Below are positions 996-32,000 of a stretch of DNA of 32,000 nucleotides, in pieces. Position 1 is the first letter of the stretch, and every line of letters begins with the position of its first letter. The DNA is taken from assembly GCA_029881255.1 (NCBI GenBank), contig JAOUMY010000003.1, positions 26,732 to 58,731 of the forward strand, given 5' to 3'. The position numbers were made by a program, and so were the translations under genes. This DNA is from Gammaproteobacteria bacterium. Lineage in GTDB: Bacteria; Pseudomonadota; Gammaproteobacteria; S012-40. Under the pieces are notes generated by a model. That model saw nothing but the letters and a program-made list of their open reading frames with translations, was not told the origin of the DNA and did no database searches.

Positions 996-1052
996 TAGGA
1001 TGAAACGGAGACAGGGATGTCTCCACTACTAACTGGAAAGCAGTAAAGCATT

Positions 1053-1883
1053 ATGAGTGAGCAAGATACCAAAAAGATATTGACGTCAGCGATCTACCGA
1101 GTGTGTCGATCGCTTGTGCGTATCTTGCTGCGTAACGGCATACCCTTCGCAGGGTTTACGGACATCGCCAAGAAAGCCTATGTGGATGTTGCACGCGAGG
1201 AATTCGGTGTTGAAGGCAAGAAGGTTTCAGACTCACGCATTGCCACGATTACGGGGCTAACGCGCAAGGATGTACGACGTGTGAAACTGTTGGATATCCG
1301 CTCAGACACGGAACTTGCCGAACACTATAACCGCGCTGCACGCGTCATATTCGGATGGATACACGACAAGGATTATCAGGACGAAAACGCCAAACCGGTA
1401 CGATTGAAATTTGAAGGAAACAGTCCCTCGTTTAGCGCGCTGACCAAGAAATACAGTGGCGACGTTCCACCCAGAGCAATCTTGGACGAATTGGAACAGG
1501 TAGGCGTAGTCAAGGTGTTAGCCGACGACAGTATCGAAATACTCAAACTCGGTTACATACCTAGCACCAGCCAGGCAGAGAAGCTGAAATTGTTTGGCCG
1601 TGATACTTCCGGGCTGATCGATACCGTAGACCGAAACATTTACAGCGGTGAACAAGCATTTTTTCAACGTAAAGTAAGTTACGACGAATTGCCAGAAGAC
1701 GCGCGAGAAGAAATCCGCGCCATGCTGGAAGTGAAGGGCCAGGAGTTATTGATATATTTTGACGCCATCATGGCAGGTAGAGACGCCAGTCTGAATCCCG
1801 ATCAAAAAGGGAAAAACCACAAGGCTGCTGGTATTGGCATCTACTACTTCGAAGACGATGGCCCAGAGGAACAGGACTCATGA
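1053..1883 (+). CDS. DUF6502-like family protein, possible winged-helix-type N-terminus
   Basis: 276 aa ORF with N-terminus TSAIYRVCRSLVRILLRNGIPFAGFTDIAKKAYVDVAREEF typical of this family; 4-nt overlap (ATGA) with the next CDS. Confidence 0.7.
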   Translation: MSEQDTKKILTSAIYRVCRSLVRILLRNGIPFAGFTDIAKKAYVDVAREEFGVEGKKVSDSRIATITGLTRKDVRRVKLLDIRSDTELAEHYNRAARVIFGWIHDKDYQDENAKPVRLKFEGNSPSFSALTKKYSGDVPPRAILDELEQVGVVKVLADDSIEILKLGYIPSTSQAEKLKLFGRDTSGLIDTVDRNIYSGEQAFFQRKVSYDELPEDAREEIRAMLEVKGQELLIYFDAIMAGRDASLNPDQKGKNHKAAGIGIYYFEDDGPEEQDS

Positions 1884-3334
1884 AACAACAACTGTGGAAA
1901 ACATCGAGCGCTCTGCTGCTCACCCTGTCACTCTTCGCATGTGAAGGTGGCGGCATTACGGGCACAGGTTTTAAAGACCAGGCCGTTGGCGTCATCACCG
2001 GTTTCGGCAGCGTACTTGTCAACGGTATCAAGTTTGAGACCAATAATACCAAGGTGACGATAGACGATATCGAAAACGCCCTGGAAACCGAATTGAAAGT
2101 CGGCATGATAGTCAACATACAAGGCGAGATCGATGAAAACGGCCTCGCAGGATTTGCGAAATCCATTACCTATTCTGACGATGTCGAGGGTACCGTGCTG
2201 GCAAACAATACCTCGGTTGACAACACTCTCAATATTATGGGCCAAACCATTATCGTCAGTCCTGAAACGGTTTTTGGTAGCCAGATCGACACCATTACCA
2301 GAGTAGATGAGATTCAGACAGGAAATATCGTGGAAGTCAGCGGCTTCAATTCTGGTGACGGTTTTATTTACGCCACTCGGGTCGAAGTGAAGAAACTGGC
2401 GCACACTAGTGGAGAAGCGATTGAGGTTTCCGGTTTAATCAAGAGTCTCGATACCCAGGTATTCCTGATTGGCGATATGACGGTAGATTATCGTTCCGCA
2501 GAACTGGTCAATATCCCCAGCAATCAGTTACTCAATGACATGTTTGTTGAAGTGCGCAGCACCGAAGGCATTGATACGGTAAGCAATCGCCTTATCGCCT
2601 CGCGAATCAAACTCGAAGGTGATGGCAAGAAAAAATATCGTCTGGAGAAGGGTCAGGAAATCGAGCTGGAAGGCGTTGTCGCTGACTACAATGCCACTGC
2701 ACAGACTTTTAATCTCAACGGTCAAACCGTGGTGGTAAGCAGCACTACCGAGTTCAAACCCCAGGGTGCCGTGTTACGCGATGGTGCCAAGCTTTCTGTC
2801 AATGGCAGTATCAACGCCAAAGACGAATTGCTTGCCGAGGAGATTGAGATACGCGCCGAGGCCAATCTTAAAGTTCAGGCCTATGTCGAGTGGGTAGATT
2901 CCACTGCACATAGCTTCAAACTGCTCAACAGGACTTTTCTGACCACCAATACCAGCGTGTTCAATGATGAGCGCAACGACGGTTTCGAACCTGTTCGTTA
3001 TATGAATCTGGACCACTTGCGTGAAAATGATTTCGTGGAAGTCAGTGCTTATTATGATGAAGCGGAAGATATCCTGATCGCCACACACATAGAGCGCGAC
3101 GACCCTGAATTCACGCTCAGCAATGCAAGCCAGCAATGGGTGGAAATCAACGGCCTGGTGGCAGAAAACCATTTGCCAGACCTGACTTCAATCAAGATTT
3201 CCGGGATAACCATAGACATCAGTCAAATGTCGGCGGAAGATCAGGCGAATTACATCGTTGGTAAACAGGTTGAGATAATGGGTTACTACGACGAAGTAAC
3301 CCATCTGGTCATCGCCAGCCCGAACGAACCCTGA
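1880..3334 (+). CDS. DUF5666 domain-containing lipoprotein
   Basis: 484 aa, signal peptide with lipobox (LSLFACEGGGITGTG), multiple DUF5666-like modules (GKKYRLEKGQEIELEGVV... / EVRSTEGIDTVSNRLIASRIKLEG). Confidence 0.8.
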   Translation: MKQQLWKTSSALLLTLSLFACEGGGITGTGFKDQAVGVITGFGSVLVNGIKFETNNTKVTIDDIENALETELKVGMIVNIQGEIDENGLAGFAKSITYSDDVEGTVLANNTSVDNTLNIMGQTIIVSPETVFGSQIDTITRVDEIQTGNIVEVSGFNSGDGFIYATRVEVKKLAHTSGEAIEVSGLIKSLDTQVFLIGDMTVDYRSAELVNIPSNQLLNDMFVEVRSTEGIDTVSNRLIASRIKLEGDGKKKYRLEKGQEIELEGVVADYNATAQTFNLNGQTVVVSSTTEFKPQGAVLRDGAKLSVNGSINAKDELLAEEIEIRAEANLKVQAYVEWVDSTAHSFKLLNRTFLTTNTSVFNDERNDGFEPVRYMNLDHLRENDFVEVSAYYDEAEDILIATHIERDDPEFTLSNASQQWVEINGLVAENHLPDLTSIKISGITIDISQMSAEDQANYIVGKQVEIMGYYDEVTHLVIASPNEP

Positions 3335-14452: not shown

Positions 14453-14569
14453 TGGAGATGATCCTCGCTAGTTTCTAGTGAGCTATCAGCAAGTGGGGTG
14501 CCAATTGGGAGGATCAGGCTTTATGGTCTGGCGAGATGTGTAGGATGACCAAAGCTAAGAAAATGAATT

Positions 14570-15014: not shown

Positions 15015-16634
15015 CTAAACGCGAGCCGCAGCCGGCACGGGACCTGGCGCTGCCTGCCGTTGTTGCTGCTTGGCCTCCTGAACCTGCATGGCCTGCAACA
15101 GTAATCCACGGCTGCTGGGAAAATCCACCGGCTCGCCCATGTCCTGGGACAAAAAGGCATTGATCAATGGCTGCATCTTGATTGCCGCGTCCACTGCCGG
15201 ATCGCTGCCCGCACTATAAGCCCCCACGCTGATCAGATCGCGGTTGCGCTCATAATTCGAGTAGTGTTGTTTAAACAGTCGCGCCGCGCGCAAATGGGTC
15301 GGATCGACAATCTCGGTCATGACCCGGCTAATCGACTGTTCGATATCAATGGCCGGATAACGCCCCATCTCGGCAATACTGCGCGACAACACGATGTGGC
15401 CATCGAGTATGGCCCGCGCCGCATCGGCAATCGGGTCTTGCTGGTCGTCACCCTCGGCGAGCACCGTGTAAAAAGCCGTAATCGAGCCGCCACCAACATC
15501 GCCATTGCCGGCGCGCTCTACCAATTGCGGAATCCGCGCGAACACCGATGGCGGATAGCCACGGGTCGCTGGCGGTTCGCCGATGGCCAAAGCAATCTCC
15601 CGTTGCGCCTGGGCATAACGAGTCAACGAATCCATTAGCAGTAATACGTTCTTGCCCTGGTCACGAAAATACTCGGCAATGCGCGTGGCCAATGACGCAC
15701 CGTGCAGACGCAACACCGGGGGCGCATCGGCGGGCGCCGCAACGACGACTGAGCGCGACATTCCCTCTTCGCCCAGGGTGTTATAGATAAACTCTTTTAC
15801 CTCACGCCCACGTTCACCGATCAGGCCGACGACAATTACCTCGGCCTCGGTAAAGCGCGTCATCATCCCGAGCAATACCGATTTGCCCACACCACTACCG
15901 GCAAACAAACCGATACGCTGCCCCTTGCCGACGGTGAGCATAGAGTTGATGGCGCGCACGCCAACATCGAGTGGTTCGCTGATCTGATTGCGCGATAAGG
16001 GGTTGATCGGTCTTCCCTGCATGGGCACATATTCGTCTGCATCCAGAGGCCCGAGACCATCCAACGGACGACCGCGTCCATCGATAACCCGCCCGAGCAG
16101 GCCTTCGCCAACGGGAGCCTCATACGTCTGTCCTGTCGGGACCACCCGCGCGTTGGGCGTGATACCGCGCATGTCTCCGGTAGGCATGAGAAAGAGTTTG
16201 TCCTCGGAAAATCCCACGACTTCGGCCTCGACATTCTTGCCATCGCTATTGGCGACCAGACAACGGGCGCCGATGGGCGCCTGCACGCCGGTAGCCTCCA
16301 GTGTCAGGCCGACAATACGCTTGAGCTTGCCCTCGACGAGCAAAGGCATGGGTTCATCAAGACGCTTTTCATAGACCTGTAGACGCTCGGTCCACTCTGC
16401 ACTACGTGGATGCGGACCTTCCAAACGATATAAACGCGGAATGGGTCGACGGGGTGGAATGGCAGAACGGCCTTCAAGTCGTTCATGGTGAAAATGCAGA
16501 CGATCACGCCACTGACTACTGCGGGGGTGTGGCCTGTCACAGGCCATGGGAAGCGGACCGTCTAAACGCTCCGCATATTTATGTAATCGTTTACTCCAGT
16601 TATGCCGTCTTCGCTTGAGCGGGTCGTCACTCAT
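15015..16634 (-). CDS. fliI: Flagellum-specific ATP synthase FliI with an extended N-terminus
   Basis: Walker A region [48 protein letters not shown]. About 80 aa N-terminal extension ahead of the canonical [33 protein letters not shown]. Confidence 0.95.
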
Positions 16635-18450: not shown

Positions 18451-20217
18451 TTAATCCTCTTCTTCATCCAGCGCCAGCCAGGTCTTCACAACCTGCGCCA
18501 CGATGCGCGGATCTTCGTTCACCATCTTACGCAGCACTTCCAGCATACGTTGGTATTCCTCGTGACTGACGCCAAGCGCCGCCCAGTCTTCCAGACTCAA
18601 ACCACCAGGACGTTGAGGGTCGTAGTGGATGTCTTCTGCAGACTGCGAACCTTCGTCCTCTTGAACTTGTTCCTCTTCCTCGACCTCTTCCGGCGTGGTC
18701 ATGGCGCGTATTACCGGACGCACTACCAGCAGGATGATCACCAGCACCGCCAACACACCTACGCCCTGCTTGGCCAGATCGATAAACCAGGGTTGTTCCC
18801 ACAGCGGACCACTCGGTGCTGGCGGAATATCCTGGGAGATCTGGAAGGCGGCGTTGATGATATTCAGGCTATCGCCACGCTGTTCGCTAAACCCTACCGC
18901 CTCGCGTACAAGTGACCGAATACTCTCGATTTCCTCGGGAGAGTAGGTGGCGCGGGCAACACTGCCGTCGGCTCCCACAACCACTTTATCGTCCATCACG
19001 ACCGCCACCGACAGCCTTTTCAGCGTGCCCGGCGCCTTGCGCGTGTGGCTGATGGTTTTATCCAATTCATAGTTAAAAGTGGAACGATCACTCTTCTTAG
19101 ACGGGGCCTGAGAAGCACCTTTGCCGTCTGCGGGCAAAGTCTCGGGAGCCTCGCCCGCGCCCGGCGGTTGATTGGTCAGAGCACCCGGTACGCCGCTTAC
19201 ATCACCACCGCGGCTCTCTTCACGCACGGTTTGTTCACTGCGTATCGAAGGCAAATCCGGATTGAATTTTTCGGCGGTGCTCTCGGTCATGGTGAAGTCG
19301 ATGTCGGCATCGACTTGCGCACGCAATGCCTCGAAACCAACGACCGGCGTCAGTATCCGTTCGATACGATGAATGTAATACTCTTCCATCTTTTGTTTGA
19401 AATCGAATTGCGCAGAAGACAGCGCCATGTCACCTGACATGTGTCGCTTAGTTAACATGCGTCCGCGTTCGTCGACGACGGTAACATTATCGGATTTGAG
19501 TTCGGGTATGCTTGATGCGACCAAATGCACAATCGCTGCAACCTGACTTTCATCGAGTGAAAGCCCGCGACCGAGTTTCACCATCACCGATGCGGTTGGT
19601 TCTTTGCGATCGCGAATAAACACAGACTGTTTAGGTATGGCAAGATGCACACGCGCAGATTCGATTGATGACATCGCTGTGATCGAACGGGCAAGTTCAC
19701 CTTCTATCGCCTTGTGATAACGTGCCTGCTCCATAAACTGGCTGGTACCGAAGCCCTGCTGCTCGGCCAACATCTCAAAGCCAGTACCTTCCTGCTGAGG
19801 TAGCCCCTGGGTCGCAAGACGCAAACGTACCTCATGCACTTTATCCCCCGGCACTTTTATCTCACCGGTCTTGTCATCCAGTTGATACGGTATCCCCTCT
19901 TGATCTAACACCTGCACGATATCAGCGCTGGATTGTTGCGAGAGACCTGCATAGAGCAACTCATAATTCTTTTCGGTGGTATACATGAAGATGGCAATAA
20001 TCACGGTGAAGGCCGCCGCGACACCGATAACCAACTGCATTTGCTGCCGACGGGATAAGGCGCGAAAACGCGCCACCATCGGCTTTTCAGTTAAATCCTC
20101 ATCGGAATAATCCTGCATGGTATCGACAGGCAGGCGCGTATCCAGGTCCGTCGTCGCCATATCGGTACGACCCGCTGCATTGGGATTTTGAGGAAGATTT
20201 TCTGCTGGAACCGCCAT
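18451..20217 (-). CDS. fliF: Flagellar MS-ring protein FliF
   Basis: 588 aa: NYELLYAGLSQQSSADIVQVLDQEGIPYQL, ARVHLAIPKQSVFIRDRKEPTASVMVKL, C-terminal TM and FliG-binding tail. Confidence 0.95.
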   Translation of the reverse strand: MAVPAENLPQNPNAAGRTDMATTDLDTRLPVDTMQDYSDEDLTEKPMVARFRALSRRQQMQLVIGVAAAFTVIIAIFMYTTEKNYELLYAGLSQQSSADIVQVLDQEGIPYQLDDKTGEIKVPGDKVHEVRLRLATQGLPQQEGTGFEMLAEQQGFGTSQFMEQARYHKAIEGELARSITAMSSIESARVHLAIPKQSVFIRDRKEPTASVMVKLGRGLSLDESQVAAIVHLVASSIPELKSDNVTVVDERGRMLTKRHMSGDMALSSAQFDFKQKMEEYYIHRIERILTPVVGFEALRAQVDADIDFTMTESTAEKFNPDLPSIRSEQTVREESRGGDVSGVPGALTNQPPGAGEAPETLPADGKGASQAPSKKSDRSTFNYELDKTISHTRKAPGTLKRLSVAVVMDDKVVVGADGSVARATYSPEEIESIRSLVREAVGFSEQRGDSLNIINAAFQISQDIPPAPSGPLWEQPWFIDLAKQGVGVLAVLVIILLVVRPVIRAMTTPEEVEEEEQVQEDEGSQSAEDIHYDPQRPGGLSLEDWAALGVSHEEYQRMLEVLRKMVNEDPRIVAQVVKTWLALDEEED

Positions 20218-20252
20218 ACTTTTTTACGCCTGTTTAGTAAAACGTTTCGCCA

Positions 20253-20594
20253 CTACACCTGCATGCTCATCACATCTTGATAGGCTTTGAGTAATTCCTT
20301 GCGTACCGTGAGCAAGGCCTCGAATGCGACGCTGGCCTTTTCCTTCGCTACCATTACTTGCGGCAAATCCACACCTTCGACGCCGGCTTCAAAGGCTTTC
20401 TTCAACGTCGCCGCATTCTGTTGCGCGTTATTCACTTCGTTAACTGCTTTCTGAAACAGTGAACCAAAACCGGGGGGTTGATCATTGGTCACTGGCTGTG
20501 CGTTTTGAGTCGACACATGTGGCACCTGCGCCCTCGCCTGCGAAGCAAGTCGGTGCAAATCTGACATCATGCGGCTCATATTTAAGTCATTCAT
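20253..20594 (-). CDS. fliE: Flagellar hook-basal body protein FliE
   Basis: 113 aa with FGSLFQKAVNEVNNAQQNAATLKKAFEAGVEGVDLPQVMVAKEKASVAFEALLTVRKELLKAYQDVMSMQV. Confidence 0.95.
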   Translation of the reverse strand: MNDLNMSRMMSDLHRLASQARAQVPHVSTQNAQPVTNDQPPGFGSLFQKAVNEVNNAQQNAATLKKAFEAGVEGVDLPQVMVAKEKASVAFEALLTVRKELLKAYQDVMSMQV

Positions 20595-20611
20595 ATCGGC
20601 TCCTTCCTCTG

Positions 20612-21991
20612 TTAAAAATTGCCGTAGGCGCTGGGGACTTCGATACCGTCTTCGCGCATGCGCGCCAGTTTGTAGCGCAAGGTGCGCTGACTGACGCCGA
20701 GTTTTTCTGCCGCAGTTTTGCGGCTACCGTTGGACGCCTTTAAGGCCTCCAATATCAAAACGTGTTCTCTGTCGCGCAGACTGTCACCGAGTTGCCCTTG
20801 CGAATTTTCGTCGTCTGTTTCTATGGGCCTTGGCGCGCTTGCACTGCTGGGCGAGCTAGTATTCATCGACGAAGGTTCAAACATGATTTGTTCATCGTCG
20901 ATGCGTTGATTGACCTGCAAAATCAGCGCACGCTGGGCGACGTTGTCCAGTTCACGCACGTTTCCTGGCCAGCTATGCCCCATCAGTTTTTGCTGTGCAG
21001 CATCGCTGAGTTCTGGCACTGGTCCACCACTGCGCGTATGCCGACGCAGTAAAAATTGCATCAATGGCACCACGTCTTGTTTGCGATCACGCAGCGGCGG
21101 TAAATGAATAGGAAAGACATTGAGGCGGTAATACAAGTCTTCACGAAAACGTCCGTTGGCGACTTCCTTTTTCATGTCGCGGTTGGTGGTGGCGAGTACG
21201 CGCACATCCAGGGGAATAAGTTTATTTCCGCCTAGACGTTCGACTTCGCGCTCCTGTAACACACGCAAGAGTTTGGCTTGCAGGCCGATGTCCATCTCGG
21301 AAATTTCATCGAGTAATAGTGTGCCGCCATTGGCCAGTTCAAACTTACCCGGGCTGGATTTATATGCGCCGGTAAACGCGCCTTTTTCATATCCGAACAA
21401 CATCGCTTCGAGCATGTTTTCCGGAATCGCGGCGCAATTGAGCGCCACAAACGGACCTTTATGCCGCGGCGACATTTGATGAATCTGATGGGCAAAGACT
21501 TCTTTACCGGTACCGCTCTCACCAGAAATCAACACCGTTGCTTCGCTGTCGGCGACCTTGGCGACGAGTGCCAAAACCTCTTTTGTTTTTGGATCTTCGG
21601 CAATCATGTCGCCGTCGACAGTCTCCTGCCCCAACACATGATTGGCAACCATATTCACCAGCACTTCGGCCTCGAAAGGCTTAACCAAATAATCAATCGC
21701 GCCATCGTGCATGGCTTCGACGGCTTTCTGGATAGTGCCGTAGGCAGTCATCAACACCGTCGGAATTTCCGGATGTAGCTCGCGCATTTTTTTCAGCAGT
21801 GTGTGACCATCCATGCCGTCCATTTGCACATCGCTAATCACCATGCCGACGTTATCGTTTTCCAGACACTCCAGCGCCGCGTGACCGTTGTCTGCTTCGA
21901 GCACGTTATAACCTGCGATCTGCAAAGTGTCGGTGAGCGCCTCGCGCAAACTCGCATCGTCTTCTACGATCAGTACGCTGGTGTGGCTCAT
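20612..21991 (-). CDS. fleR: Sigma54-dependent flagellar response regulator (FleR/FlrC type)
   Basis: Receiver domain, GESGTGKEVFAHQIHQMS and GAFTGAYKSSPGKFELA AAA+ motifs, C-terminal Fis-type HTH (SRKTAAEKLGVSQRTLRYKLARMREDG). Adjacent to fleS and fliE. Confidence 0.92.
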   Translation of the reverse strand: MSHTSVLIVEDDASLREALTDTLQIAGYNVLEADNGHAALECLENDNVGMVISDVQMDGMDGHTLLKKMRELHPEIPTVLMTAYGTIQKAVEAMHDGAIDYLVKPFEAEVLVNMVANHVLGQETVDGDMIAEDPKTKEVLALVAKVADSEATVLISGESGTGKEVFAHQIHQMSPRHKGPFVALNCAAIPENMLEAMLFGYEKGAFTGAYKSSPGKFELANGGTLLLDEISEMDIGLQAKLLRVLQEREVERLGGNKLIPLDVRVLATTNRDMKKEVANGRFREDLYYRLNVFPIHLPPLRDRKQDVVPLMQFLLRRHTRSGGPVPELSDAAQQKLMGHSWPGNVRELDNVAQRALILQVNQRIDDEQIMFEPSSMNTSSPSSASAPRPIETDDENSQGQLGDSLRDREHVLILEALKASNGSRKTAAEKLGVSQRTLRYKLARMREDGIEVPSAYGNF

Positions 21992-23235
21992 GCTTGACTC
22001 CTCTTGGATTCGGGGGCGGGTGTGCTGTTCATAATCGGCAGGCGCATAACAAAAGTCGTTCCTTGTTCATCGCTTTTACCCAACCACAGGCTGCCGCCAT
22101 GGGCCTGGACGACGTTCTGGGCGACGGCCAGGCCCAGGCCTGTGCCTTTGGACTTGGTGGTAAAAAACGGCTCAAAAATTCGCTTCTGATCTTCGGCAGA
22201 AATGCCGGGACCGTTGTCGGCGATATAAATATCTACCGAGGGCAAACTCTGTGTTTGTCTCGGTAAATCAGTGACGATGTGAATCTGTGCCTGTTCGCCA
22301 CAGGCCTGTAGCGCATTGGAAACCAGGTTTTGCATTACGCTCAACAAGGCATCGCGATTGGCGCGCAACAGGATCTCTTGTTGCGGCGGCTGGAGGTGTA
22401 ACATCGCACCGGCCTCACTCACCTGCGCTTCCATATATTGGCCAAGGTCGTTGAGTAGCTGTCCGAGGTCGACTTCCTGTAACACCGTCGCCGCGTCACG
22501 GGTGAAGGACAACATATCGTTGACCACTTTTTCCATGTGACGCATGCGATCCAGCGCCTTGTCGGCAAAACGATTGCGATCGGTTTCTTTAATGCCTTGC
22601 TTGGTCAGATTGGAAACATATAACAGTGCCGAGGCCAGCGGTGTGCGTATCTGATGGGCAACCTTGGCACTCATCTCGCCCATGGCGGATAGACGCTTGT
22701 AACGTTCGAGGGCGGTTTGCAGACCGCGAGCTTCGGTGATGTCGTTGAGTAGAATTATCTGCCCCGGCTCGTTACCTAAAGGACAGGTGGAAATCGACAC
22801 CCAACGACCAGCGAGCGTAATCGCTTCCTGACCGGTAAAGGAGCCACCGGATTGCAGAAAACCTTGTTCGACCACATCGCGCCACAGCGCGCCGTCGAGT
22901 TCCATCGCAAGTAATTCGCGCGCAGCTGGATTGGTCTCTTGAATACGGCCGCGGTTATCGATAACCACAACTCCGGCGGGCAGTGCATCCAGTAGATTGC
23001 TGAGACGGGAGGCGAGCCGCGCGTTTTCCGCCAGTTGTTCGCCATGATCGTGTTGCGCGGAATTCAGCTCTTCACTGAGATTGGAGATGTGATCTTCCAG
23101 GGCACGATAAGTCGCCGTGAGCTGATCGGCTACGCCATTAAAAGCGTTAAAAGCCTCTTGCAGCTCTTTGGGATTTGGCTTGCCTGGTTTGGTCTTGGCC
23201 AAGAAATGTGCTCCGATGATTCCGTCTGTTTGCAT
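21988..23235 (-). CDS. fleS: Flagellar sensor histidine kinase, PAS + HisKA + HATPase (FleS/FlrB type)
   Basis: PAS region LLDALPAGVVVIDNRGRIQETNPAARELL; H-box GEMSAKVAHQIRTPLASALLYV; ATP-binding GPGISAEDQKRIFEPFFTTKSKGTGLGLAVAQNVVQAHGG. Exact start uncertain (see findings). Confidence 0.92.
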   Translation of the reverse strand: MQTDGIIGAHFLAKTKPGKPNPKELQEAFNAFNGVADQLTATYRALEDHISNLSEELNSAQHDHGEQLAENARLASRLSNLLDALPAGVVVIDNRGRIQETNPAARELLAMELDGALWRDVVEQGFLQSGGSFTGQEAITLAGRWVSISTCPLGNEPGQIILLNDITEARGLQTALERYKRLSAMGEMSAKVAHQIRTPLASALLYVSNLTKQGIKETDRNRFADKALDRMRHMEKVVNDMLSFTRDAATVLQEVDLGQLLNDLGQYMEAQVSEAGAMLHLQPPQQEILLRANRDALLSVMQNLVSNALQACGEQAQIHIVTDLPRQTQSLPSVDIYIADNGPGISAEDQKRIFEPFFTTKSKGTGLGLAVAQNVVQAHGGSLWLGKSDEQGTTFVMRLPIMNSTPAPESKRSQA

Positions 23236-23361
23236 AACGGAATGCTTTGAGCAAGAAGCATGCCCCTGTTTAGGGCTTTAAATTCAGAGAGTTAAAAAGG
23301 CTAAATCAGACCCCGTCAAGGCTTCGTCACTTTTTTGCCGCGGATTCGGGGAATCCATACA
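23109..23361. repeat. Direct repeat copy A: 5' end of intact fleS plus its upstream region
   Basis: Ungapped alignment with 29196..29448 (constant offset 6087); hand count about 17 mismatches in 253 bp. Confidence 0.9.
23250..23266 (-). promoter_or_regulatory. Candidate sigma54 (-24/-12) promoter upstream of fleS
   Basis: Minus-strand GGGGCATGCTTCTTGCT: GG-N10-GC spacing, close to TGGCACG-N4-TTGCW. Confidence 0.45.
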
Positions 23362-23370
23362 GCAGCAGAA

Positions 23371-26300
23371 TCACAAAGGATTTACCGTCAGCGTAAAATT
23401 AGCGCTGTCAGAAAACGAGTTCTTTTCGTCTACGCGGATATATAACGAGCTACCGCTGGAGCTTGCGATACAGGAGTCGTTCCACGTTCCTGCATACGCA
23501 ACATCACAAACCGTACGTGCATAGTTATCGTCGTCGTACACCCAGACATCTACGTCGTCGGTCTGATTCGAAACCTCAATCGAATATAAACCTCCAGCGA
23601 TTAAGCCATCGACGCGATAATATCGGTATTCGTCTTTTACTATCGTGTCATCAAAGGGAGTACTTAGCGATAGCGCTTGTGGAGTTACACTAAATTCGAG
23701 AATTTCCAGGACGAAATCTGAACCCGAATAGCTTATGCTCGCATCGACCACTATATATGCACTTGTACTCTGAGCGACAGCTACACAGTCATCTCCTGTG
23801 CCGAAGTAGTAGGGTTCGCAAAGTACCGAACTATAATCTGCGTCCGAATAGACACTAAGATATGTTCCCGAGTCAGTCATGCTCGCCAAGTTAAAATAGT
23901 AGGCCGTTCCAATTGCAAGACCGGTTACCTCATAATAGACCTTGCCTTTATGGGCGCTGCCAGAAGTATCGGGAAACTCTGACAAATCCATTACAATCGG
24001 ACTTGGGGCCGGTTCTATAGTAATTGAAAATTCACCACCGTTATCGCTGTAGAGCGTGTCAACCAGCAAGAACATCGAACTTCCACTGGCAGTCAAATCG
24101 CACTCGAAATGGGTAAAGCAATAAGTGCCGCTAAACGAACCCTCACTATACAATGAAAGAGAAATCGAAGAAGCCGTCGTATTTGAAATCGTCGCCCTAT
24201 ATGTAACGCCAGAGGATAAACCAGTGATTTCGAACAAACCATAGTTGACACCAATTGAACCGCGCAGCGGAAAATCCTCTGTATCGTATGCAACAACTTG
24301 CGGTGTAACTGCTGTAATCGTTACCGTATCTGTTTGACTACTCAATGTGCCATCGTTGACGATGAGACTAAAAACGTAGTCACCAATGAGGTCTGCTTGA
24401 AATTGGAAATACTTGGCGCCAGGATCGACGATAGTCGCGTTACTACCGGCCGGAGAAGAAATAAGTGTCCAGTTGTAATTCAGCGCGTCATAATTAACAT
24501 CGTAACTCTGATAGCCAAAGACAAAGGGTGAAGAGCCAACTGCTACCGCGTGATCAGCTCCTGCGTATGCGACAGGCGCGACATTTCCGCTACCTGCAGT
24601 AATTATGACAGTATCGACAGCACTATCGGATACTCCATCGTTCACAACTAAATTTATAACATAGCTGCCGTCAACATCAGCTACAAATCCCGACGATACG
24701 CTAGTAGGCGTATCAAGCAAACTAAGACCACTTGTCGCAGGTACTGAATTTATAGACCAGGAGTAACTCAGGTTGTCTCCGTTATTATCCTTGCTAGCGA
24801 CCCCTGAAAGCTCGACATATGAACCGCTTAAAACCGTTTGATCACGACCAGCGTCAGCAACTGGAGGTACATTTTGCGCGGCAGTAATCACTACTTGGCT
24901 TAATAGACTCGTCAGCACCCCGTCGCTTACCGATAACGATATTACATAGCTTCCATCTACATCGGGAGTAAAACTAGGAATCCTCGAAAGTGGTTCATTC
25001 AGCATACTTAGTGTGCTTCCAGTAGGCACAGAAACGATATTCCAGGAATAAGTAGATATAGAACCATCCTTGTCTGTACTTAGTGATCCGTCGAGACCAA
25101 CCAGGGATCCGGTTAAGACAGATCTATCATATCCCGCATGTGCAACAGGCGGCATATTTGCGCCCGCACTAATAGTTACCGTGGCTGGGCTACTACTAAA
25201 ATATCCATCGTTCACCACCAGTGATATCACATAGTATCCTTCAACATCTGCAACGAAAGTTGGATTAACAACAGTAGGATCAGACAATGCCGTAACACTG
25301 CTTCCGACCGGTACAGACACAATCGACCACAGGTAAGTAATTGGAGAACCGTCTGGGTCGATGCTTAAGCTAGCATTGAGATAAGCCGCATTTCCGACGA
25401 TTAACGATCGTCTAGGACCTGCGTGCGCATTCGGCGGACTATTAGGTGCACCGGCCGTAATCGTTACAGTTGAACTGCTACTTTGTAACTGTCCATCGCT
25501 AACGACCAAGGAAAAAACATAGTCTCCATCCACGTCGGCCGTAAAGCTTGGGGAAACGACGCTGTTGCTCGACAGAGTCGAAATACTGCCTGTTGGAAGC
25601 GATACTGTCGTCCAAGTGTACGAGAGAAGTTGTCCATTGGGATCATAACTTGCACTTCCATCCAGCGTCACCACGCTTCCAGTGGTAACATATTTTGAGC
25701 TTCCCGCACTGGAAACCGGCGGCGCATCAACCGCCGCAAGTACTGATACTGTCGCTGGGCTGCTGTTGTCCGTACCATCATTAACAGTGAGTGAGAAAAT
25801 ATATGTGCCTTCAACATCTGGGGTAAAACTCGGACTAACTGTAGCGGCATTGTTCAATGAAATCACGTTACTGGAAGCAGGTACGGAGACCACGTACCAG
25901 CTATACGTTATGAAGTCGTTGTTTGCATCCGAGCTAGCGCTACCGTCCAGTGTAACTAGCCTACCCAGGATTGCAGTTTGGTTTTCTCCTGCGTGGGCAA
26001 TCGGGACAGCCTGGAATGCGACTGATACTAAAACCTCGTCAGCGGCGCTTTCAAGGTTTCCGTCGTTCACCACCAATGTTGCGCGATACACACCAACTAC
26101 ATCGGCAACGAAACTAGGTCTCGCAGCCGTAGCGTCAGATAAACTTGCGGAACTTCCGTCTGGCGCGACCAACGTCCAAAGATAAGTGAGCATGTCACTA
26201 TCAAAATCCGAACTAAGAGACCCGTCGAGCGTAACCTTATCACCGGGTTTTGCTGACGAATCTCTACCCGCGTTTGCAACAGGAGCAGAATTTTTTGTAC

Positions 26301-26658
26301 TTGCTACAATCACCACTTCATCGTCAGCAAACTTATCAAGTTCATCGTGCACGACGAGGGAAACTCGATATACACCATCCAAGTCTGCAATAAATGAGGG
26401 CGCAACAGTGGTCGGATTCGATAAAGTTGCCGCGCTGTTTTCTGGAACGTCAACAAATTTCCAGCTATAGGTAATACGACTTCCCTCTGGATCCACGCTC
26501 AAGCTACCATCAAGCTTAACAAGCGATCCGGTAGCAATATTTTGATCCGTACCGGCATGGACGACAGGAGCCTGATTATCAAGTGGGAATTCATTTAAGC
26601 AAGAGGAAAGTAGAAGAATAGGCGAGATAGTGATCAGCTTTGGAAAATAAAAACGCAT
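23371..26658 (-). CDS. Large PKD-domain repeat lipoprotein with C-terminal pre-peptidase-C-like domains
   Basis: 1095 aa; lipobox ILLLSSCLNEF; about 8 tandem ~95-aa PKD-like units (PPVADAGRDQTVLSGSYVELSG...YVINLVVNDG) followed by about three PPC-like units (YYRVDGLIAGGLYSIEVSNQTDDVDVWVYDDD). Confidence 0.85.
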   Translation of the reverse strand: MRFYFPKLITISPILLLSSCLNEFPLDNQAPVVHAGTDQNIATGSLVKLDGSLSVDPEGSRITYSWKFVDVPENSAATLSNPTTVAPSFIADLDGVYRVSLVVHDELDKFADDEVVIVASTKNSAPVANAGRDSSAKPGDKVTLDGSLSSDFDSDMLTYLWTLVAPDGSSASLSDATAARPSFVADVVGVYRATLVVNDGNLESAADEVLVSVAFQAVPIAHAGENQTAILGRLVTLDGSASSDANNDFITYSWYVVSVPASSNVISLNNAATVSPSFTPDVEGTYIFSLTVNDGTDNSSPATVSVLAAVDAPPVSSAGSSKYVTTGSVVTLDGSASYDPNGQLLSYTWTTVSLPTGSISTLSSNSVVSPSFTADVDGDYVFSLVVSDGQLQSSSSTVTITAGAPNSPPNAHAGPRRSLIVGNAAYLNASLSIDPDGSPITYLWSIVSVPVGSSVTALSDPTVVNPTFVADVEGYYVISLVVNDGYFSSSPATVTISAGANMPPVAHAGYDRSVLTGSLVGLDGSLSTDKDGSISTYSWNIVSVPTGSTLSMLNEPLSRIPSFTPDVDGSYVISLSVSDGVLTSLLSQVVITAAQNVPPVADAGRDQTVLSGSYVELSGVASKDNNGDNLSYSWSINSVPATSGLSLLDTPTSVSSGFVADVDGSYVINLVVNDGVSDSAVDTVIITAGSGNVAPVAYAGADHAVAVGSSPFVFGYQSYDVNYDALNYNWTLISSPAGSNATIVDPGAKYFQFQADLIGDYVFSLIVNDGTLSSQTDTVTITAVTPQVVAYDTEDFPLRGSIGVNYGLFEITGLSSGVTYRATISNTTASSISLSLYSEGSFSGTYCFTHFECDLTASGSSMFLLVDTLYSDNGGEFSITIEPAPSPIVMDLSEFPDTSGSAHKGKVYYEVTGLAIGTAYYFNLASMTDSGTYLSVYSDADYSSVLCEPYYFGTGDDCVAVAQSTSAYIVVDASISYSGSDFVLEILEFSVTPQALSLSTPFDDTIVKDEYRYYRVDGLIAGGLYSIEVSNQTDDVDVWVYDDDNYARTVCDVAYAGTWNDSCIASSSGSSLYIRVDEKNSFSDSANFTLTVNPL

Positions 26659-27042
26659 CTAAACTTTCCTCTTTGGTATTTGATACATCTATCGGACTAG
26701 CCAAACGCGCATCTATAACAATTTTTGCCAACAAAACCATAATTTTCCGATAAACCGACAGAACAACTCCAACTCTTTCATCAAGTTTCAAGCAATCCTC
26801 TCCCTATAACTGGCATATGGCACAAAAAAACACGCATTACTTTCTGCACTATTGGATTTATTCCCAAACAATTTCTCGATCTAAATATTTGTAAACGTTC
26901 TATACGAATACTACAAGACTAGTTAACACAGACAACATACCAATTACATCGTCGTCATCGAACAACGCCGATCCTAAACTGCCACGCACCTACTTAAAGA
27001 TAGAAACACGTCCGACGATATACATAGCAATATGCGCCACTC

Positions 27043-28440
27043 ATGAGAACCGCCAATTTGAAAAATATAATCTATAAATTAGCTCTAACAACGAATTTAC
27101 TTTTCCTATTTTCGTGCGTAACAACACCTGTGGAACACACATTAGTACCGGAAGGACACGAAAAGTCTGGACTACTTGTTGGCGAGATAATTTCAACCAG
27201 TATTCCAAATTTTAAATACGCAAGTGTCGTTATCGACGGTGTAGAACGAGGAAATTCTCGATTCGGCGGAAAAATAAAATTTTTACATTCACCTGGAAAT
27301 CATACGATAAATTCTGTAAACGTTCCTATACCCGGAACCAACTTATATAATCGCTACCCCATTAATCTAGCATTCACTATTAACTCCAAAAGAGTCACCA
27401 ATTTCGGATTGCTAAATATTGAAATACAAAGCAAAACTAATCAGTTTTTTATTTGGTATTTGGACAACAATGAAGAAATGAAATATTTTCTTAACAACGC
27501 CTACCCAAATGAATCGACAAAGATTAACTTGACCGAAATATCTCTGATTCCGAACAAGTACGTTAAAGGAAATAAGATAAATAATATTCGTAATCATATC
27601 ACCCGCAATACGCTAATTTCTCGTATGGATGACAAAACTAGACCGCTAAACGTCAAAGGATATGTACTAGGCCCTATCGGAAGCATTGCGAGATATGATT
27701 TATCCAACAAGAACTCTCCTTTGGAAACCCCTATTGACATAGATACGACGCTTGATATGAGCAATTGCAAGTCGCATGAAAAAATTGTCGCATGTCTATT
27801 CCCCCCGAGTAAACTATTCGTCGTAGATGGAAAAAAGGCATACAAACGCAGTTTGCCTGACGGCATAGTAGCCGACACTATCCGGATTCTAGACAAACAA
27901 AAATTAATGCTCATCGATAAAGCTGGGTCTATATTTGTTTCCCGAAACGCCGGTGTTTCCTGGACTACGGCACATAAAAGTACGGTAAGTCGCCAGCCTC
28001 AGTTCGCGGCGAACGAGTATCTTAACAACTATGGCTCTGAATCCTATGGTGTATATCTCGGTCCCGACAAATATTACGTTTACGCAAATTCGCGTGAAAA
28101 AAGCGGAAATTTCGGCATTTGGGAAAGTGACAGCAAATTGAAATCTTTTTCGGCTATTTCGCTACCGGAATCTATACGTGATATACCAAGTATTTTGGAG
28201 TCTAACGACACCCTTGTAATCAGCCCACGTATTGAGAATCTCTTTAACGAGGAATTCTACATACGCACTAGCGACGGAAAAACTTGGCGAACTGTCGATA
28301 CGCCTGGAAGACGGTGTGGCGCCCTGAAAGTTAGCGAAAGTGACCCGAATACCATGAGCCTGATTTGTTCCGGTAGAACATGGAAAACAACAGACGGCGC
28401 CAAAACCTGGAAGGCAAGCAACAAGTTGGATAAAGGCTAA
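27043..28440 (+). CDS. Hypothetical lipoprotein with C-terminal BNR/sialidase-like repeat motifs
   Basis: 465 aa; lipobox LLFLFSCVTTP; motifs such as IFVSRNAGVSWTTA, YIRTSDGKTWRTVD and TWKTTDGAKTWKAS resemble Asp-box-type repeats. Confidence 0.7.
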   Translation: MRTANLKNIIYKLALTTNLLFLFSCVTTPVEHTLVPEGHEKSGLLVGEIISTSIPNFKYASVVIDGVERGNSRFGGKIKFLHSPGNHTINSVNVPIPGTNLYNRYPINLAFTINSKRVTNFGLLNIEIQSKTNQFFIWYLDNNEEMKYFLNNAYPNESTKINLTEISLIPNKYVKGNKINNIRNHITRNTLISRMDDKTRPLNVKGYVLGPIGSIARYDLSNKNSPLETPIDIDTTLDMSNCKSHEKIVACLFPPSKLFVVDGKKAYKRSLPDGIVADTIRILDKQKLMLIDKAGSIFVSRNAGVSWTTAHKSTVSRQPQFAANEYLNNYGSESYGVYLGPDKYYVYANSREKSGNFGIWESDSKLKSFSAISLPESIRDIPSILESNDTLVISPRIENLFNEEFYIRTSDGKTWRTVDTPGRRCGALKVSESDPNTMSLICSGRTWKTTDGAKTWKASNKLDKG

Positions 28441-28480
28441 GCCTTGTAAGCAAACGTCAAATCATCATGAGAAGAAGTCG

Positions 28481-29107
28481 ATGACAAAAACATACAAACT
28501 GCTACTACTAAGTGTTTTTTTATTCCCATTTAACCAGACACAAGCAAGCAGCCTTGATCTCAGCGGTTACCTCAGCCTAGCACTTGGCCTTGGCGGAGAC
28601 AGATTGTTGGAAATCGGTTATACCGATGGGACGAAAGGAACAACTTACGCCGGAAATGGAGCTTCCGTTATAGTCGGCTCAACTCTTCGAAATAACTATT
28701 TTGAAACTAGAGCGGGAATCGGCTTTATGTCTGTTAGACAAACTGGCGACAATGGCGGCGCAGGGTTCAGGCGGTGGGTGGCAGAAGGAACCGGACTCAT
28801 TCGACTGGGCCGGGAAAAAAAGCATATGATTGGCGGTGGTGTGGTTTATCACATAAAACCCGTTCTAGAATGCGAATTCACTGGCCTGTGCCAAGACTAC
28901 ACGTATTTCAAAAATGCGCTCGGATACACTGTCGAATACAACTATGTATTCGACGGTGGCAATCCAAATTACATGGATACCTATGCAATCGCCTTGCTGT
29001 TTTTTACGCGTGTACAAATCGTCAAGTACCAGATTAATGATTCCACGAGCAACTATACCGCTGATGGCAGCGGTATAAGTATGGGCGTGGCAGTTACGTG
29101 GTATTGA
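28481..29107 (+). CDS. Small exported protein, possible outer-membrane beta-barrel
   Basis: 208 aa; signal peptide MTKTYKLLLLSVFLFPFNQTQA; alternating beta-like segments and aromatic C-terminus GVAVTWY. Confidence 0.65.
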   Translation: MTKTYKLLLLSVFLFPFNQTQASSLDLSGYLSLALGLGGDRLLEIGYTDGTKGTTYAGNGASVIVGSTLRNNYFETRAGIGFMSVRQTGDNGGAGFRRWVAEGTGLIRLGREKKHMIGGGVVYHIKPVLECEFTGLCQDYTYFKNALGYTVEYNYVFDGGNPNYMDTYAIALLFFTRVQIVKYQINDSTSNYTADGSGISMGVAVTWY

Positions 29108-29195
29108 TGAGAGAGTATACGTCACCTAAACGTCTTTAGTCCTAAGGCCAATATGATCTTTAGGTCACAAAGACTCATCATACTCGTGTCGCGAC

Positions 29196-29322
29196 AAGTC
29201 GCCGTAAGCTGATCGGCTACGCCATTAAAAGCGTTAAAAGCCTCTTGCAGCTCTTTGGGATTTGGCTTGCCTGGTTTGGTCTTGGCCAAGAAATGTGCTC
29301 CGCTGGTTCCGTCTGTTTGCAT
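29196..29322 (-). pseudogene. Truncated 5' fragment of fleS
   Basis: Translates as MQTDGTSGAHFLAKTKPGKPNPKELQEAFNAFNGVADQLTAT, against MQTDGIIGAHFLAKTKPGKPNPKELQEAFNAFNGVADQLTAT in intact fleS; similarity stops abruptly at 29196. Confidence 0.88.
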
Positions 29323-29336
29323 AACGGAATGCTTTG

Positions 29337-29353
29337 AGCAAGAAGCATGCCCC
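29337..29353 (-). promoter_or_regulatory. Second copy of the candidate sigma54 promoter motif
   Basis: Identical minus-strand GGGGCATGCTTCTTGCT at offset 6087 from the fleS-proximal copy. Confidence 0.4.
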
Positions 29354-29461
29354 AGAATTGGGCATTGAAATCAGCGACTTAAAAAGCCTAAATCAGACCC
29401 CGTCAAGGGTTCGACACTTTTTTGCCGCCGATTCGGGGATTCCATACACCGGCTGACAAAC

Positions 29462-31180
29462 TCAGCCGGTAATAGTACTCAACTGCGGTTTGTTTGCAGA
29501 CTTAGCAGCAATGCGCACATCCACCCCGGCGCGTATAAAGTGACGATTGATCGCCGACAACAAGGCCTTCAACGATGCACTAATCGTGTCCTGATCAAAG
29601 GCCACGCCGATGATGCGTTGGCCATCGATATTGGCGTGCACATAGGCGACCGCGACTGCATCGGTGCCCTCTTCCATCGCATGTTCGCTATAGTCAACGA
29701 TACTGATTTGTTGCCCGCAATGTTGTTGCCAGGCATCGACGAAGGCGGCCATGGTGCCCTCACCTTCACCGTGCATGGTGTGCTCACCCTGTTGATTACT
29801 AATCCGCGCTTCAATCACGTCTCGACCGTTCTTGTCGATGTGGAAGCCGTGCAAACTCAACGGCGACTGATCGTGTACATAGTGTTCGCGAAAGATTTCA
29901 TAGATCTGTGCGCTATCGACTTCGCCGCTTTGCGTCTCACTGACTTTCTGAACATGGGTCGCCAGCTCGGTCTGTACCCAACGGGGCAATTGCAAACCAA
30001 AATCACGCTCCATGACGAAGGCAACGCCGCCCTTACCCGATTGGCTATTGACGCGTATCACAGCCTGGTAGTCGCGCCCCAAGTCTTTGGGGTCGATAGG
30101 CAGATAGGCCACCTGCCAATGCTCGTCGTCTCTTTGTTTGTGCAGACATTTGCGTATCGCGTCCTGATGACTGCCGGAAAACGCGGTATATACCAGCTCG
30201 CCTATCCACGGGTGACGCGGATTTAAAGGGATATTGGTGCACTCGGTAACGACGTGGATAATCTCGTCCGGGTTAGACAAATCCAGTTGCGGATCAATAC
30301 CCTGGCTATACAGATTCATGGCCATGGTGACCACGTCCATATTGCCGGTACGCTCGCCATTACCCAATAAAGTCCCTTCGACACGATCGGCACCGGCCAT
30401 GATCGCCAGCTCGGCAGAGGCCACCGCACAACCTCTATCGTTATGGGTGTGTACCGAAAGCACGATGCTGTCGCGACGCTTCACGCGCGTAGCAAAATAT
30501 TCGACCTGGTCGGCAAACACATTCGGCGTGGCGACTTCGACGGTAGACGGCAGATTGATGATGCATTTGTGTTGCGGCGTCGGTTGCCACACATCGGTGA
30601 CCGCGTCGCAGACTTCCACGGCGTAATCCATCTCGGTACTGGTAAAACTCTCGGGGGAATATTCAAAGGTCCAATCCACATTCGGATATTTTTTCGCTTC
30701 GTCTTGTACCCACGTTGCGCCATTCACTGCAATCGCCTTTATGCCCTCGCGGTCCATTCCGAAAACACGCTCGCGTTGAATCGTAGAGGTGGAGTTATAC
30801 ACGTGCACAATAGCGCGCTTGATACCGATCAGCGATTCAAACGTACGCTGAATGAGAGCCTCACGCGCCTGCACCAATACCTGTACCGTGACGTCATCGG
30901 GAATCTGGTTTTCCTCAATCAGCCAGCGCACAAAATCATAATCGTGCTGACTGGCCGACGGGAAACCTACCTCGATTTGTTTAAAACCCAGCTTGACCAA
31001 CAAGGCCCACAGGCGGCGCTTCTGTGTTACCGTCATCGGTTCGAGTAGGGCCTGGTTACCATCGCGTAAATCCACGCTGGCCCACACCGGTGCCTGCTCG
31101 ATGACTCGGGTCGGCCATTGCCGATTCGCCAGATTTACGCCCGTCGCCGGGCGGTATTTACTGTGATTAAACTGCTTCAT
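29462..31180 (-). CDS. leuA: 2-isopropylmalate synthase (LeuA type 2)
   Basis: [75 protein letters not shown]. Start taken at 31180 ([13 protein letters not shown] upstream) rather than the track start at 31225. Confidence 0.93.
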
Positions 31181-31405
31181 TGTGTATCCTTTTGCGCCAC
31201 TGGTTTGACCCACATCGATTTCCACCTCTGGTATCAGTTTCCATCTGGCAGTCCCGGTAAGGCCCGCTTTTCGGAGTCTTGGTCACGACTCAAGCCTGTT
31301 TAGCCGTCGTGTAGAAAGCATAGCCCAATCCCCGGGGCATTATCTTGCTATTTGTGCCCGATTTTCGCTCTTGATTAATAGATTATTGCCGATATTATTA
31401 TCACT

Positions 31406-31879
31406 ATGGCAGATAATTTCACTCCCGACCGCTATGACCGCGAGATCCTGGCCATCCTGCAGCAGGATGGACGGATTAGCAATCAAGACCTTGCGGACAA
31501 GATCGGCCTCTCTCCCTCGCCGGTATTGCGACGGGTTCGAGCATTGGAAGAGTCCGGCATCATTGCTGGTTATCGCGCGCTATGCGATGCCCGCAAACTC
31601 GGCCTGACCCTGACCGCCTTGATTCACATATCCATGGACAGACACACCCCTGAGCGCTTTGAAAACTTCGAACAAAAGATTAGCGAGTTGCCGGAGATCA
31701 TGGAGTGTTTGCTGATCACCGGCCAGAGCGCGGACTATCAATTAAAGGCAGTCGTGAAAGACATGGACGCGTATCAAGTTTTGTTGCTCAACAAAATTAC
31801 GCGCATCGAAGGCGTGACCGGGGTGCAGTCGAGTTTTGTGATGCGAAGAGTGGTGGATAGGACGAGTTTGGCTTTGTAG
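31406..31879 (+). CDS. Lrp/AsnC family transcriptional regulator
   Basis: 157 aa: DREILAILQQDGRISNQDLADKIGLSPSPVLRRVRALEESGII followed by the AsnC ligand-binding domain. Confidence 0.9.
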   Translation: MADNFTPDRYDREILAILQQDGRISNQDLADKIGLSPSPVLRRVRALEESGIIAGYRALCDARKLGLTLTALIHISMDRHTPERFENFEQKISELPEIMECLLITGQSADYQLKAVVKDMDAYQVLLLNKITRIEGVTGVQSSFVMRRVVDRTSLAL

Positions 31880-32000
31880 AAATTGAGCGATCGGGTTTGT
31901 GGTTGCGACATTTTTCCGGATCTGAAATGTTCGCTCTGGGTGTCAACTCAACCGTAGGAAGCTCTAGAGCGCACTTGGTACTATTGTTTGTTTTATCGCC

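Follow-up and report, generated by a model that had tools for sequence, protein, structure and literature searches.

Within a 459,864-bp contig of a metagenome-assembled gammaproteobacterium (locus tags OEZ43_), a stretch of 32,000 nucleotides (nt), hereafter the window, hosts a cassette of three genes for exported proteins that is bracketed by two direct copies of the promoter region and 5' end of fleS, the gene of a flagellar sensor kinase. Read along the minus strand, the order is leuA, repeat copy B, cassette, repeat copy A, fleS, fleR, and fliE through fliK. The intact sensor kinase gene fleS/flrB (21988-23235, minus strand) encodes PAS, HisKA, and HATPase_c domains; the gene of the sigma-54-dependent response regulator fleR/flrC (20612-21991, minus strand) overlaps its stop codon.

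Alignment of 23109-23361 with 29196-29448 reproduced the repeat described in an earlier note on this DNA in its coordinates, its offset, and its identity of about 93%: both segments run in direct orientation and without gaps at an offset of 6087, with 17 mismatches in 253 nt (93.3%). Seed extension of the pair enlarged copy A to 23105-23369 and copy B to 29192-29456 (265 nt, 92% identity), and blastn returned 257 nt at 93.0% identity. The longest perfectly identical stretch comprises 96 nt (23120-23215, partner 29207-29302). A 45-mer of the repeat has exactly two occurrences in the window and none in 100 shuffles. In terms of content, each copy combines a sigma-54 promoter with approximately 100 nt of regulatory DNA upstream of it and, downstream, with a short leader and the initial fleS codons, their number being 33 if translation starts at a TTG and 43 if it starts at an ATG. 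The designation of the repeat as the fleS 5' end thus holds insofar as the fleS start lies inside it; only the left 98-131 nt are coding, the remainder being promoter and upstream regulatory DNA. Copy A coincides, as had been proposed, with the start of intact fleS, overlapping the open reading frame (ORF) 21988-23235. Its homologue in two relatives (L081 and L089) is the region between fleQ and fleS, and the repeat as a whole is colinear with this intergenic region and the adjoining fleS start in both of them, representing one contiguous segment of the target locus.

The fleS start itself is called differently among annotations, with NCBI placing it at ATG 23235 (415 amino acids, aa) and JGI and ENA at TTG 23202 (404 aa; P0001, P0122). 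A GGAG 9 nt upstream of TTG 23202 is conserved in the relatives, and TTG is also the start in the L081 gene call; on these grounds the sequence comparison makes TTG 23202 the more likely start. The predicted -24/-12 promoter of fleS, GGGCATGCTTCTTGCT (23250-23265, minus strand), fits the sigma-54 consensus of GG, 10 nt, and GC. Copy A, copy B, L081, and L089 all have its core GGCATGCTTYTTGCTC without variation, and the aligned copies and relatives have further upstream motifs in common, namely TTGACG, TAGCCTT, and CTGATTTAAAAG. Judged by these alignments, the repeat is the native fleS control region. Elsewhere in the window, TGGCACCCCACTTGCT at 14488-14503 (minus strand) matches the sigma-54 consensus perfectly; the start codon of fliK (14452) follows 36 nt downstream.

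Copy B comprises the same segment and ends in a truncated fleS start placed against leuA, confirming its earlier description: it overlaps an ORF of 66 aa (fleS' stub, hypothetical protein OEZ43_07705; 29122-29322, minus strand) that begins with 42-44 FleS-derived codons and continues with 22 unrelated codons and a stop. The translated stub is identical to FleS through residue 42 apart from residues 6 and 7, diverges afterwards, and has no Pfam match. At the junction of fleS and stub, copy A reads ATCGTGCC and copy B reads GTCGCGAC; the TCG in common is no better than chance. The stub makes copy B a dead end; copy A stands at the head of the intact fleS-fleR operon. On the other side lies leuA (29462-31180, minus strand), encoding a 2-isopropylmalate synthase of 572 aa from ATG 31180 with HMGL-like, IPMS_D2, and LeuA_dimer domains. 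Its stop codon at 29462 is located 6 nt past the extended edge of copy B (29456) and 14 nt past the core edge (29448). This stop codon is spanned by a strong hairpin (29449-29472, minus strand) with a folding energy of -20.4 kcal/mol (z = -5.9), whose stem meets the right core edge of copy B at its foot. The hairpin lacks a U-tract and is therefore not a classic intrinsic terminator.

The interval of 5.8 kb between the copies is filled by three intact genes and one intergenic region of 384 nt. All three products carry signal or lipoprotein leaders, in agreement with their former classification as exported proteins. The first gene (23371-26658, minus strand) encodes a lipoprotein of 1095 aa with a leader ending in ...LLSSC, eight PKD/K319L-like repeats with a period of 285 nt, and, at the C-terminus, three ~105-aa repeats without any Pfam match. 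The distance between its stop codon and copy A is 1 nt if measured to the extended edge (23369) and 9 nt if measured to the core edge (23361). In JGI contigs, the nearest relatives of this PKD protein resemble it only on the level of repeats, with 34-42% identity. Within the C-terminal ~320 aa (23371-24400, minus strand), each ~105-aa repeat shows conserved Cys pairs and a Y-x-V/I-x-G-L motif. The AT-rich region at 26659-27042 separates this gene from the divergently oriented second gene and presumably houses the cassette promoters.

The second gene (27043-28440, plus strand) encodes a lipoprotein of 465 aa. A word-indexed search of 5.8 billion non-redundant proteins returned self matches only and no close homologue; a full HMMER search yielded 137 remote relatives of equal length with at most 26% identity, in which the lipobox Cys25 never varies. 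With the alignment of these relatives as input, AlphaFold2 gave a confident model (predicted local distance difference test score, pLDDT, 88.7) that shows a predicted N-terminal beta-sandwich and a C-terminal Ycf48/BNR-like beta-propeller, its structure matches being the propellers of Ycf48, GH74, and sortilin. NCBI annotates this gene as only 320 aa; the remote homologues align from residue ~17 onward and possess Cys25, which supports 465 aa as the probable correct length. Relatives encoded on two contigs (L090, 3391-5386, and L091, 6001-8007) reside in genomic contexts without any tie to fleS or leuA. In both, the homologue is followed by a conserved lipoprotein of ~195 aa, 36% identical between the two contigs and unrelated to the third gene of the cassette. 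This third gene (28481-29107, plus strand) is an ORFan of 208 aa with a signal peptide and the C-terminus ...VTWY. It found only itself in the same word-indexed search and has no match in Pfam, NCBIfam, or PADLOC. Its single-sequence AlphaFold2 model is unusable (pLDDT 33); judged by its sequence, the protein is possibly a small outer-membrane barrel. Opposite to these two genes, copy B retains a predicted orphan copy of the fleS sigma-54 promoter (29337-29352, minus strand) pointing into the cassette. A transcript from it would be antisense to the 208-aa and 465-aa genes and would oppose their expression under the control of the flagellar FleQ/sigma-54 system.

The cassette looks horizontally acquired, being foreign by composition and by codon usage. 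GC content drops to 0.35-0.44 over 26500-28500 (0.35-0.41 in 26500-28000) vs ~0.52-0.55 in the flanks, and the GC content at third codon positions (GC3) of the cassette genes is 0.40-0.46 (PKD gene, 0.41; overall GC of the 465-aa gene, 0.40) in comparison to 0.50-0.67 in 20 other genes of the window. Their codon log-likelihoods of -1.28 to -1.35, in comparison to -1.04 to -1.17 in the 20 others, make them the three worst of 23 genes. The AT-rich stretch noticed before was thereby recovered as a dip at 26500-28500, and the suggested check of GC and codon usage returned all three genes as compositional outliers. The statement that no integrase or transposase is visible likewise stood, with Pfam, NCBIfam, and PADLOC scans of the cassette ORFs revealing none; the ORF map of the interval has no space left for a recombinase gene. 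Scans of the interval showed no tRNA or tmRNA gene (the window holds none either), no Rfam family, and no PADLOC defence gene; inverted repeats of at least 30 nt are absent from 20000-32000, and a blastn comparison of the cassette with plasmid and phage records in distant mode gave no match. An insertion sequence or composite transposon does not fit this picture, as there are neither a transposase domain nor terminal inverted repeats, and the duplication measures 257-265 bp vs 2-14 bp. With respect to genomic islands, a recombinase gene is absent and flanking direct repeats derived from the target (257-265 nt) are present; the insertion site, with the fleS 5' end restored, resembles the variant of such islands located at gene ends and involves no tRNA or tmRNA gene.

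The differences between the two copies are distributed as a mosaic. Only three of the 158 nt in 23109-23266 are mismatched (98% identity) vs 14 of the 95 nt in 23267-23361 (85%; Fisher p = 1.3e-4), the boundary being located just upstream of the sigma-54 core. Where both outgroups (L081 and L089) agree at a site differing between the copies, five sites match copy A and one matches copy B; counting sites at which at least one outgroup agrees, nine match A vs three matching B. From these comparisons, the conserved regulatory bases are kept in copy A, and the derived changes have accumulated mainly in copy B, as would be the case in a relic without function. The plain long target duplication, formerly put forward among the simplest models, fails to explain why identity is 98% on the left and 85% on the right.

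Extension of the analysis toward relatives showed that the closest FleS among the 5.8 billion non-redundant proteins is 71% identical (L081), L089 reaching 64%, and the best matches in a scan of the genome collection are 51-52% identical. In all five relatives examined (L081, L082, L001, L002, and L089), fleQ is located immediately upstream of fleS; fleQ is not in the window, and leuA adjoins the repeat instead. Since fleQ precedes fleS in every relative inspected, the adjacency of leuA and fleS is itself derived in this lineage, in which the flagellar regulon is split. An ancestral arrangement of fleS, a single repeat, and leuA, as assumed before, is consequently undocumented in any relative inspected. 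A candidate remnant of the fleQ 3' end at the right end of the repeat was rejected: similarity to the L081 fleQ tail is ~60% on DNA level over 32 nt, and no frame or helix-turn-helix motif survives.

Based on these data, we propose that the cassette was inserted at the fleS promoter and 5' region by host homologous recombination without a site-specific recombinase, the likeliest route being a Campbell-type single crossover; we see about an even chance for this reading. A layout of promoter and stub, insert, and promoter and complete gene is the textbook result when a circle with a promoter-proximal fragment of the target enters the chromosome by one homologous crossover. The repeat is a contiguous target segment, the upstream copy is truncated to the stub of 42-44 codons, and the downstream copy continues into a complete FleS of 404 or 415 aa. 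The chromosomal partner would have been leuA-P(fleS)-fleS, and the incoming partner a circular DNA containing the cassette and ~260 bp matching the fleS upstream region, the sigma-54 promoter, and the first 33-43 codons. Their presumably RecA-dependent crossover would yield leuA, promoter and truncated fleS', cassette, promoter and full-length fleS, leaving the fleS-fleR operon intact behind copy A and reducing copy B to a stub that leads nowhere. Bases conserved in relatives would later have been lost from the upstream part of copy B, with the left 158 nt being kept 98% identical, probably via gene conversion or repeated recombination between the copies. Perfect stretches of 96 nt and 47 nt are adequate RecA substrates, and the repeats may still recombine, either releasing a 6,087-bp circle and leaving an empty site behind or duplicating the cassette in tandem. 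Selection may be the reason why the duplicated segment spans the whole control region: cells would stay motile only after events by which fleS retained a full promoter.

One assembled contig displays a junction of the kind expected from such recombination. L084 (ENA ERZ27296366, k141_309214, 2,791 bp) corresponds to window positions 27383-29302 joined to 23216-24086, and thus reads from the 208-aa gene into a hybrid repeat, with copy-B bases followed by copy-A bases, and on into the 3' end of the PKD gene. Its crossover point is within the identical stretch of 96 nt. A PCR for an excised circle, as suggested in the earlier note, would look for exactly the junction present in L084; the contig may, at the same time, be an assembly artefact. 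We consider it possible, but less likely than not, that L084 represents a real junction, formed by excision of the 6,087-bp circle or by tandem duplication, rather than a chimera.

Several observations weigh against the proposed single crossover of a circle. An empty site (leuA, one repeat, fleS) was not found in the collections searched, where the nearest FleS is 71% identical, and the databases searched revealed neither a donor element nor a second cassette host. A 28-mer of the repeat had no match in JGI metagenome contigs and none in viral contigs, and the cassette was absent from plasmids and phages. A natural circle of 6 kb without replication or transfer genes has no obvious origin. Furthermore, a relic is expected to decay evenly, yet the left 158 nt of copy B are nearly unchanged: at the upstream rate, the probability of three or fewer differences in the left part is 4e-8 for 158 neutral sites, 0.017 for 60, and 0.34 for 30. 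A fresh single crossover alone leaves the split of 3/158 vs 14/95 unexplained and needs either gene conversion or a divergent donor allele. Probably, the left part was homogenised by gene conversion or repeated recombination; the copies may also have been already diverged alleles when they met, with coding sequence and core promoter selected in both lineages. As to L084, the contig is short and has both ends in unique sequence, which probably reflects low coverage. It may be a chimera of the de Bruijn graph, because MEGAHIT passes low-k contigs on to higher k and the 96-nt stretch collapses at k ≤79; a chimeric path of this kind can persist if the true branches were clipped.

Since the window derives from a metagenome-assembled genome, the arrangement itself could be an artefact, the cassette being a separate circle or the DNA of another strain threaded into the chromosome via the ~260 bp of shared sequence. 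The circular-type junction in L084 would fit this, as would the Logan k = 31 contigs of SRR7132271 (L083, L085, and L087), all of which break inside the repeat. Their ends at 23237, 29236, 23149, and 29324 are located exactly 30 nt (k-1) inside shared stretches, as expected from a genuine repeat; these contigs show only the existence of the repeat and are uninformative on structure. Against an artefact stand at least 17 positions that differ between the copies and shared stretches of no more than 96 nt, on account of which a k = 141 graph separates copies A and B. An independent MEGAHIT contig assembled at k = 141 (L088, ENA ERZ27296367, 71,739 bp) matches the window at 100% identity along 20,013 bp and crosses both copies with the same linkage of distinguishing bases. 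The assembly duplication that had been named as a refutation of the insertion is thereby excluded, and a threading artefact in general is very improbable.

Among explanations that accept the arrangement, the mosaic is accounted for in one step if the two copies are alleles and not a duplication, a linear fragment from a related strain having introduced the cassette together with the donor's fleS promoter and 5' part by homology-facilitated illegitimate recombination (HFIR), a documented mechanism (PMC3240628). The homologous join would lie inside fleS past codon 44 and the illegitimate one at fleS nucleotide ~131, copy A being the donor allele and copy B the orphaned recipient allele. The difference of 15% in upstream DNA and of 2% in the promoter core and coding part would then reflect selection on the latter two in each lineage; with ~50 neutral sites on the left, three or fewer differences are only borderline unlikely, and the short TCG match at the stub junction would also fit. 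Such an event, however, requires a donor lineage with the cassette already upstream of P(fleS) and with the same CCATACA boundary, none of which appeared in the databases searched. In the study cited, HFIR usually deleted target DNA and was far rarer than a single crossover (PMC3240628), and a promoter functional until the event would hardly be expected to lose, as copy B did, bases that both outgroups conserve. Taken together, we regard this explanation as rather unlikely. A duplication within the genome would dispense with a circular donor, either by insertion at staggered breaks ~260 nt apart with fill-in or template switching, or by tandem duplication of cassette, promoter, and fleS' and subsequent loss of one of the two cassettes. 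Forks are known to stall, and templates to be switched, at hairpins, and a strong hairpin at the leuA stop is placed exactly at the right edge of copy B; L084 would be the intermediate of the tandem duplication. This explanation predicts copies identical at birth and an even divergence in a neutral copy B, which is not observed, and its tandem variant requires two precise events, rendering it unlikely. Finally, a larger island or prophage could have integrated at the fleS 5' end, bringing along a replacement promoter and 5' end, with its integrase and most genes being deleted later and three cargo genes remaining between attL and attR. The intact gene on one side and the pseudo-fragment on the other side recall the icd/icdC layout around e14 (PMC13626634), the near-identical block beside a diverged mimic resembles att sites, and the L084 junction resembles an attP site. 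Yet the interval, full with three intact genes and the 384-nt intergenic region, harbors no recombinase gene or remnant; phage, plasmid, and PADLOC matches are lacking (PHROGs not searched), and the 158-nt identity block far exceeds the usual att cores. A decayed element of this type is accordingly quite unlikely.

In comparison with known systems, the proposed single crossover has its closest counterpart in Campbell-type insertions, i.e., the outcome of a suicide plasmid, as characterized after conjugation in E. coli (PMC3240628): there, too, a direct duplication of the target flanks the insert, with the upstream copy truncated and the downstream copy full. Among integrase-free insertions in E. 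coli lacZ, 56 of 60 were single crossovers of circularised DNA with target duplications of 109-950 bp (PMC3240628), a range that includes the 257-265 bp found here, and no recombinase gene was needed. Unlike those experiments, the present case is a natural event in an uncultured gammaproteobacterium, its insert has no plasmid backbone, and the copies are 7% different in a mosaic pattern. HFIR in natural transformation or conjugation likewise needs no genes of mobile elements, with one flank homologous and the other end joined without homology; true HFIR was much rarer than single crossover in that study and usually deleted target DNA (PMC3240628). The target DNA lost in HFIR typically about equals the DNA gained; at the present locus, we find a direct repeat instead, and a TCG microhomology no better than chance. 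The e14 prophage in E. coli icd is similar in that an intact gene end and a homologous pseudo-fragment bracket the element with the gene remaining functional; its excision recombines the two icd copies into a chimera (PMC13626634). However, e14 duplicates a 3' end, possesses its own integrase, and excises after SOS induction, whereas here a 5' end with its promoter is duplicated and no integrase is present. The locus also resembles amplification and deletion by unequal crossing-over between direct repeats, the L084 junction being one that such an event would leave, albeit represented by a single short contig only.

The kind of structure is therefore already known, namely an islet without integrase that lies between two copies of a target segment, and the present locus is a new instance of it; its reading as an insertion is reasonable but unproven. 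In this reading, a small foreign gene block landed in the start of an essential regulatory gene without killing it, since promoter and 5' end are present twice. Surface-protein cassettes could in this way become fixed in the chromosome without an enzyme of a mobile element, and the long repeats would expose the locus to loss, amplification, and gene conversion. A far-reaching, and in our view improbable, extension would be that the cassette is a minimal mobile unit without recombinase, which captured the ~260-bp host fragment of promoter and 5' gene end as attachment site and cycles by RecA only to the 6,087-bp circle or to tandem amplification. L084 would then be the circle junction, and the orphan sigma-54 promoter, firing antisense into the cassette, would couple surface-protein expression inversely to the flagellar programme of FleQ and sigma-54. 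Should the hybrid junction be real, the locus would lend itself to the study of excision or amplification driven by RecA in an uncultured bacterium; if not, its interest is confined to one metagenome-assembled genome, as a local curiosity.

Two further features of the window are unrelated to the cassette. FliI (15015-16634, minus strand) has an N-terminal extension of ~95 aa with three W-x-x-RL-x-x-[YH]-x-[EK]-RL-[DE] repeats, its first Pfam domain (ATP-synt_ab_N) beginning only at residue 106. At 66-3334 (plus strand), a DUF6502 protein is encoded between two proteins with DUF5666 repeats (309 aa and 484 aa), a group that looks like a paralogous trio.

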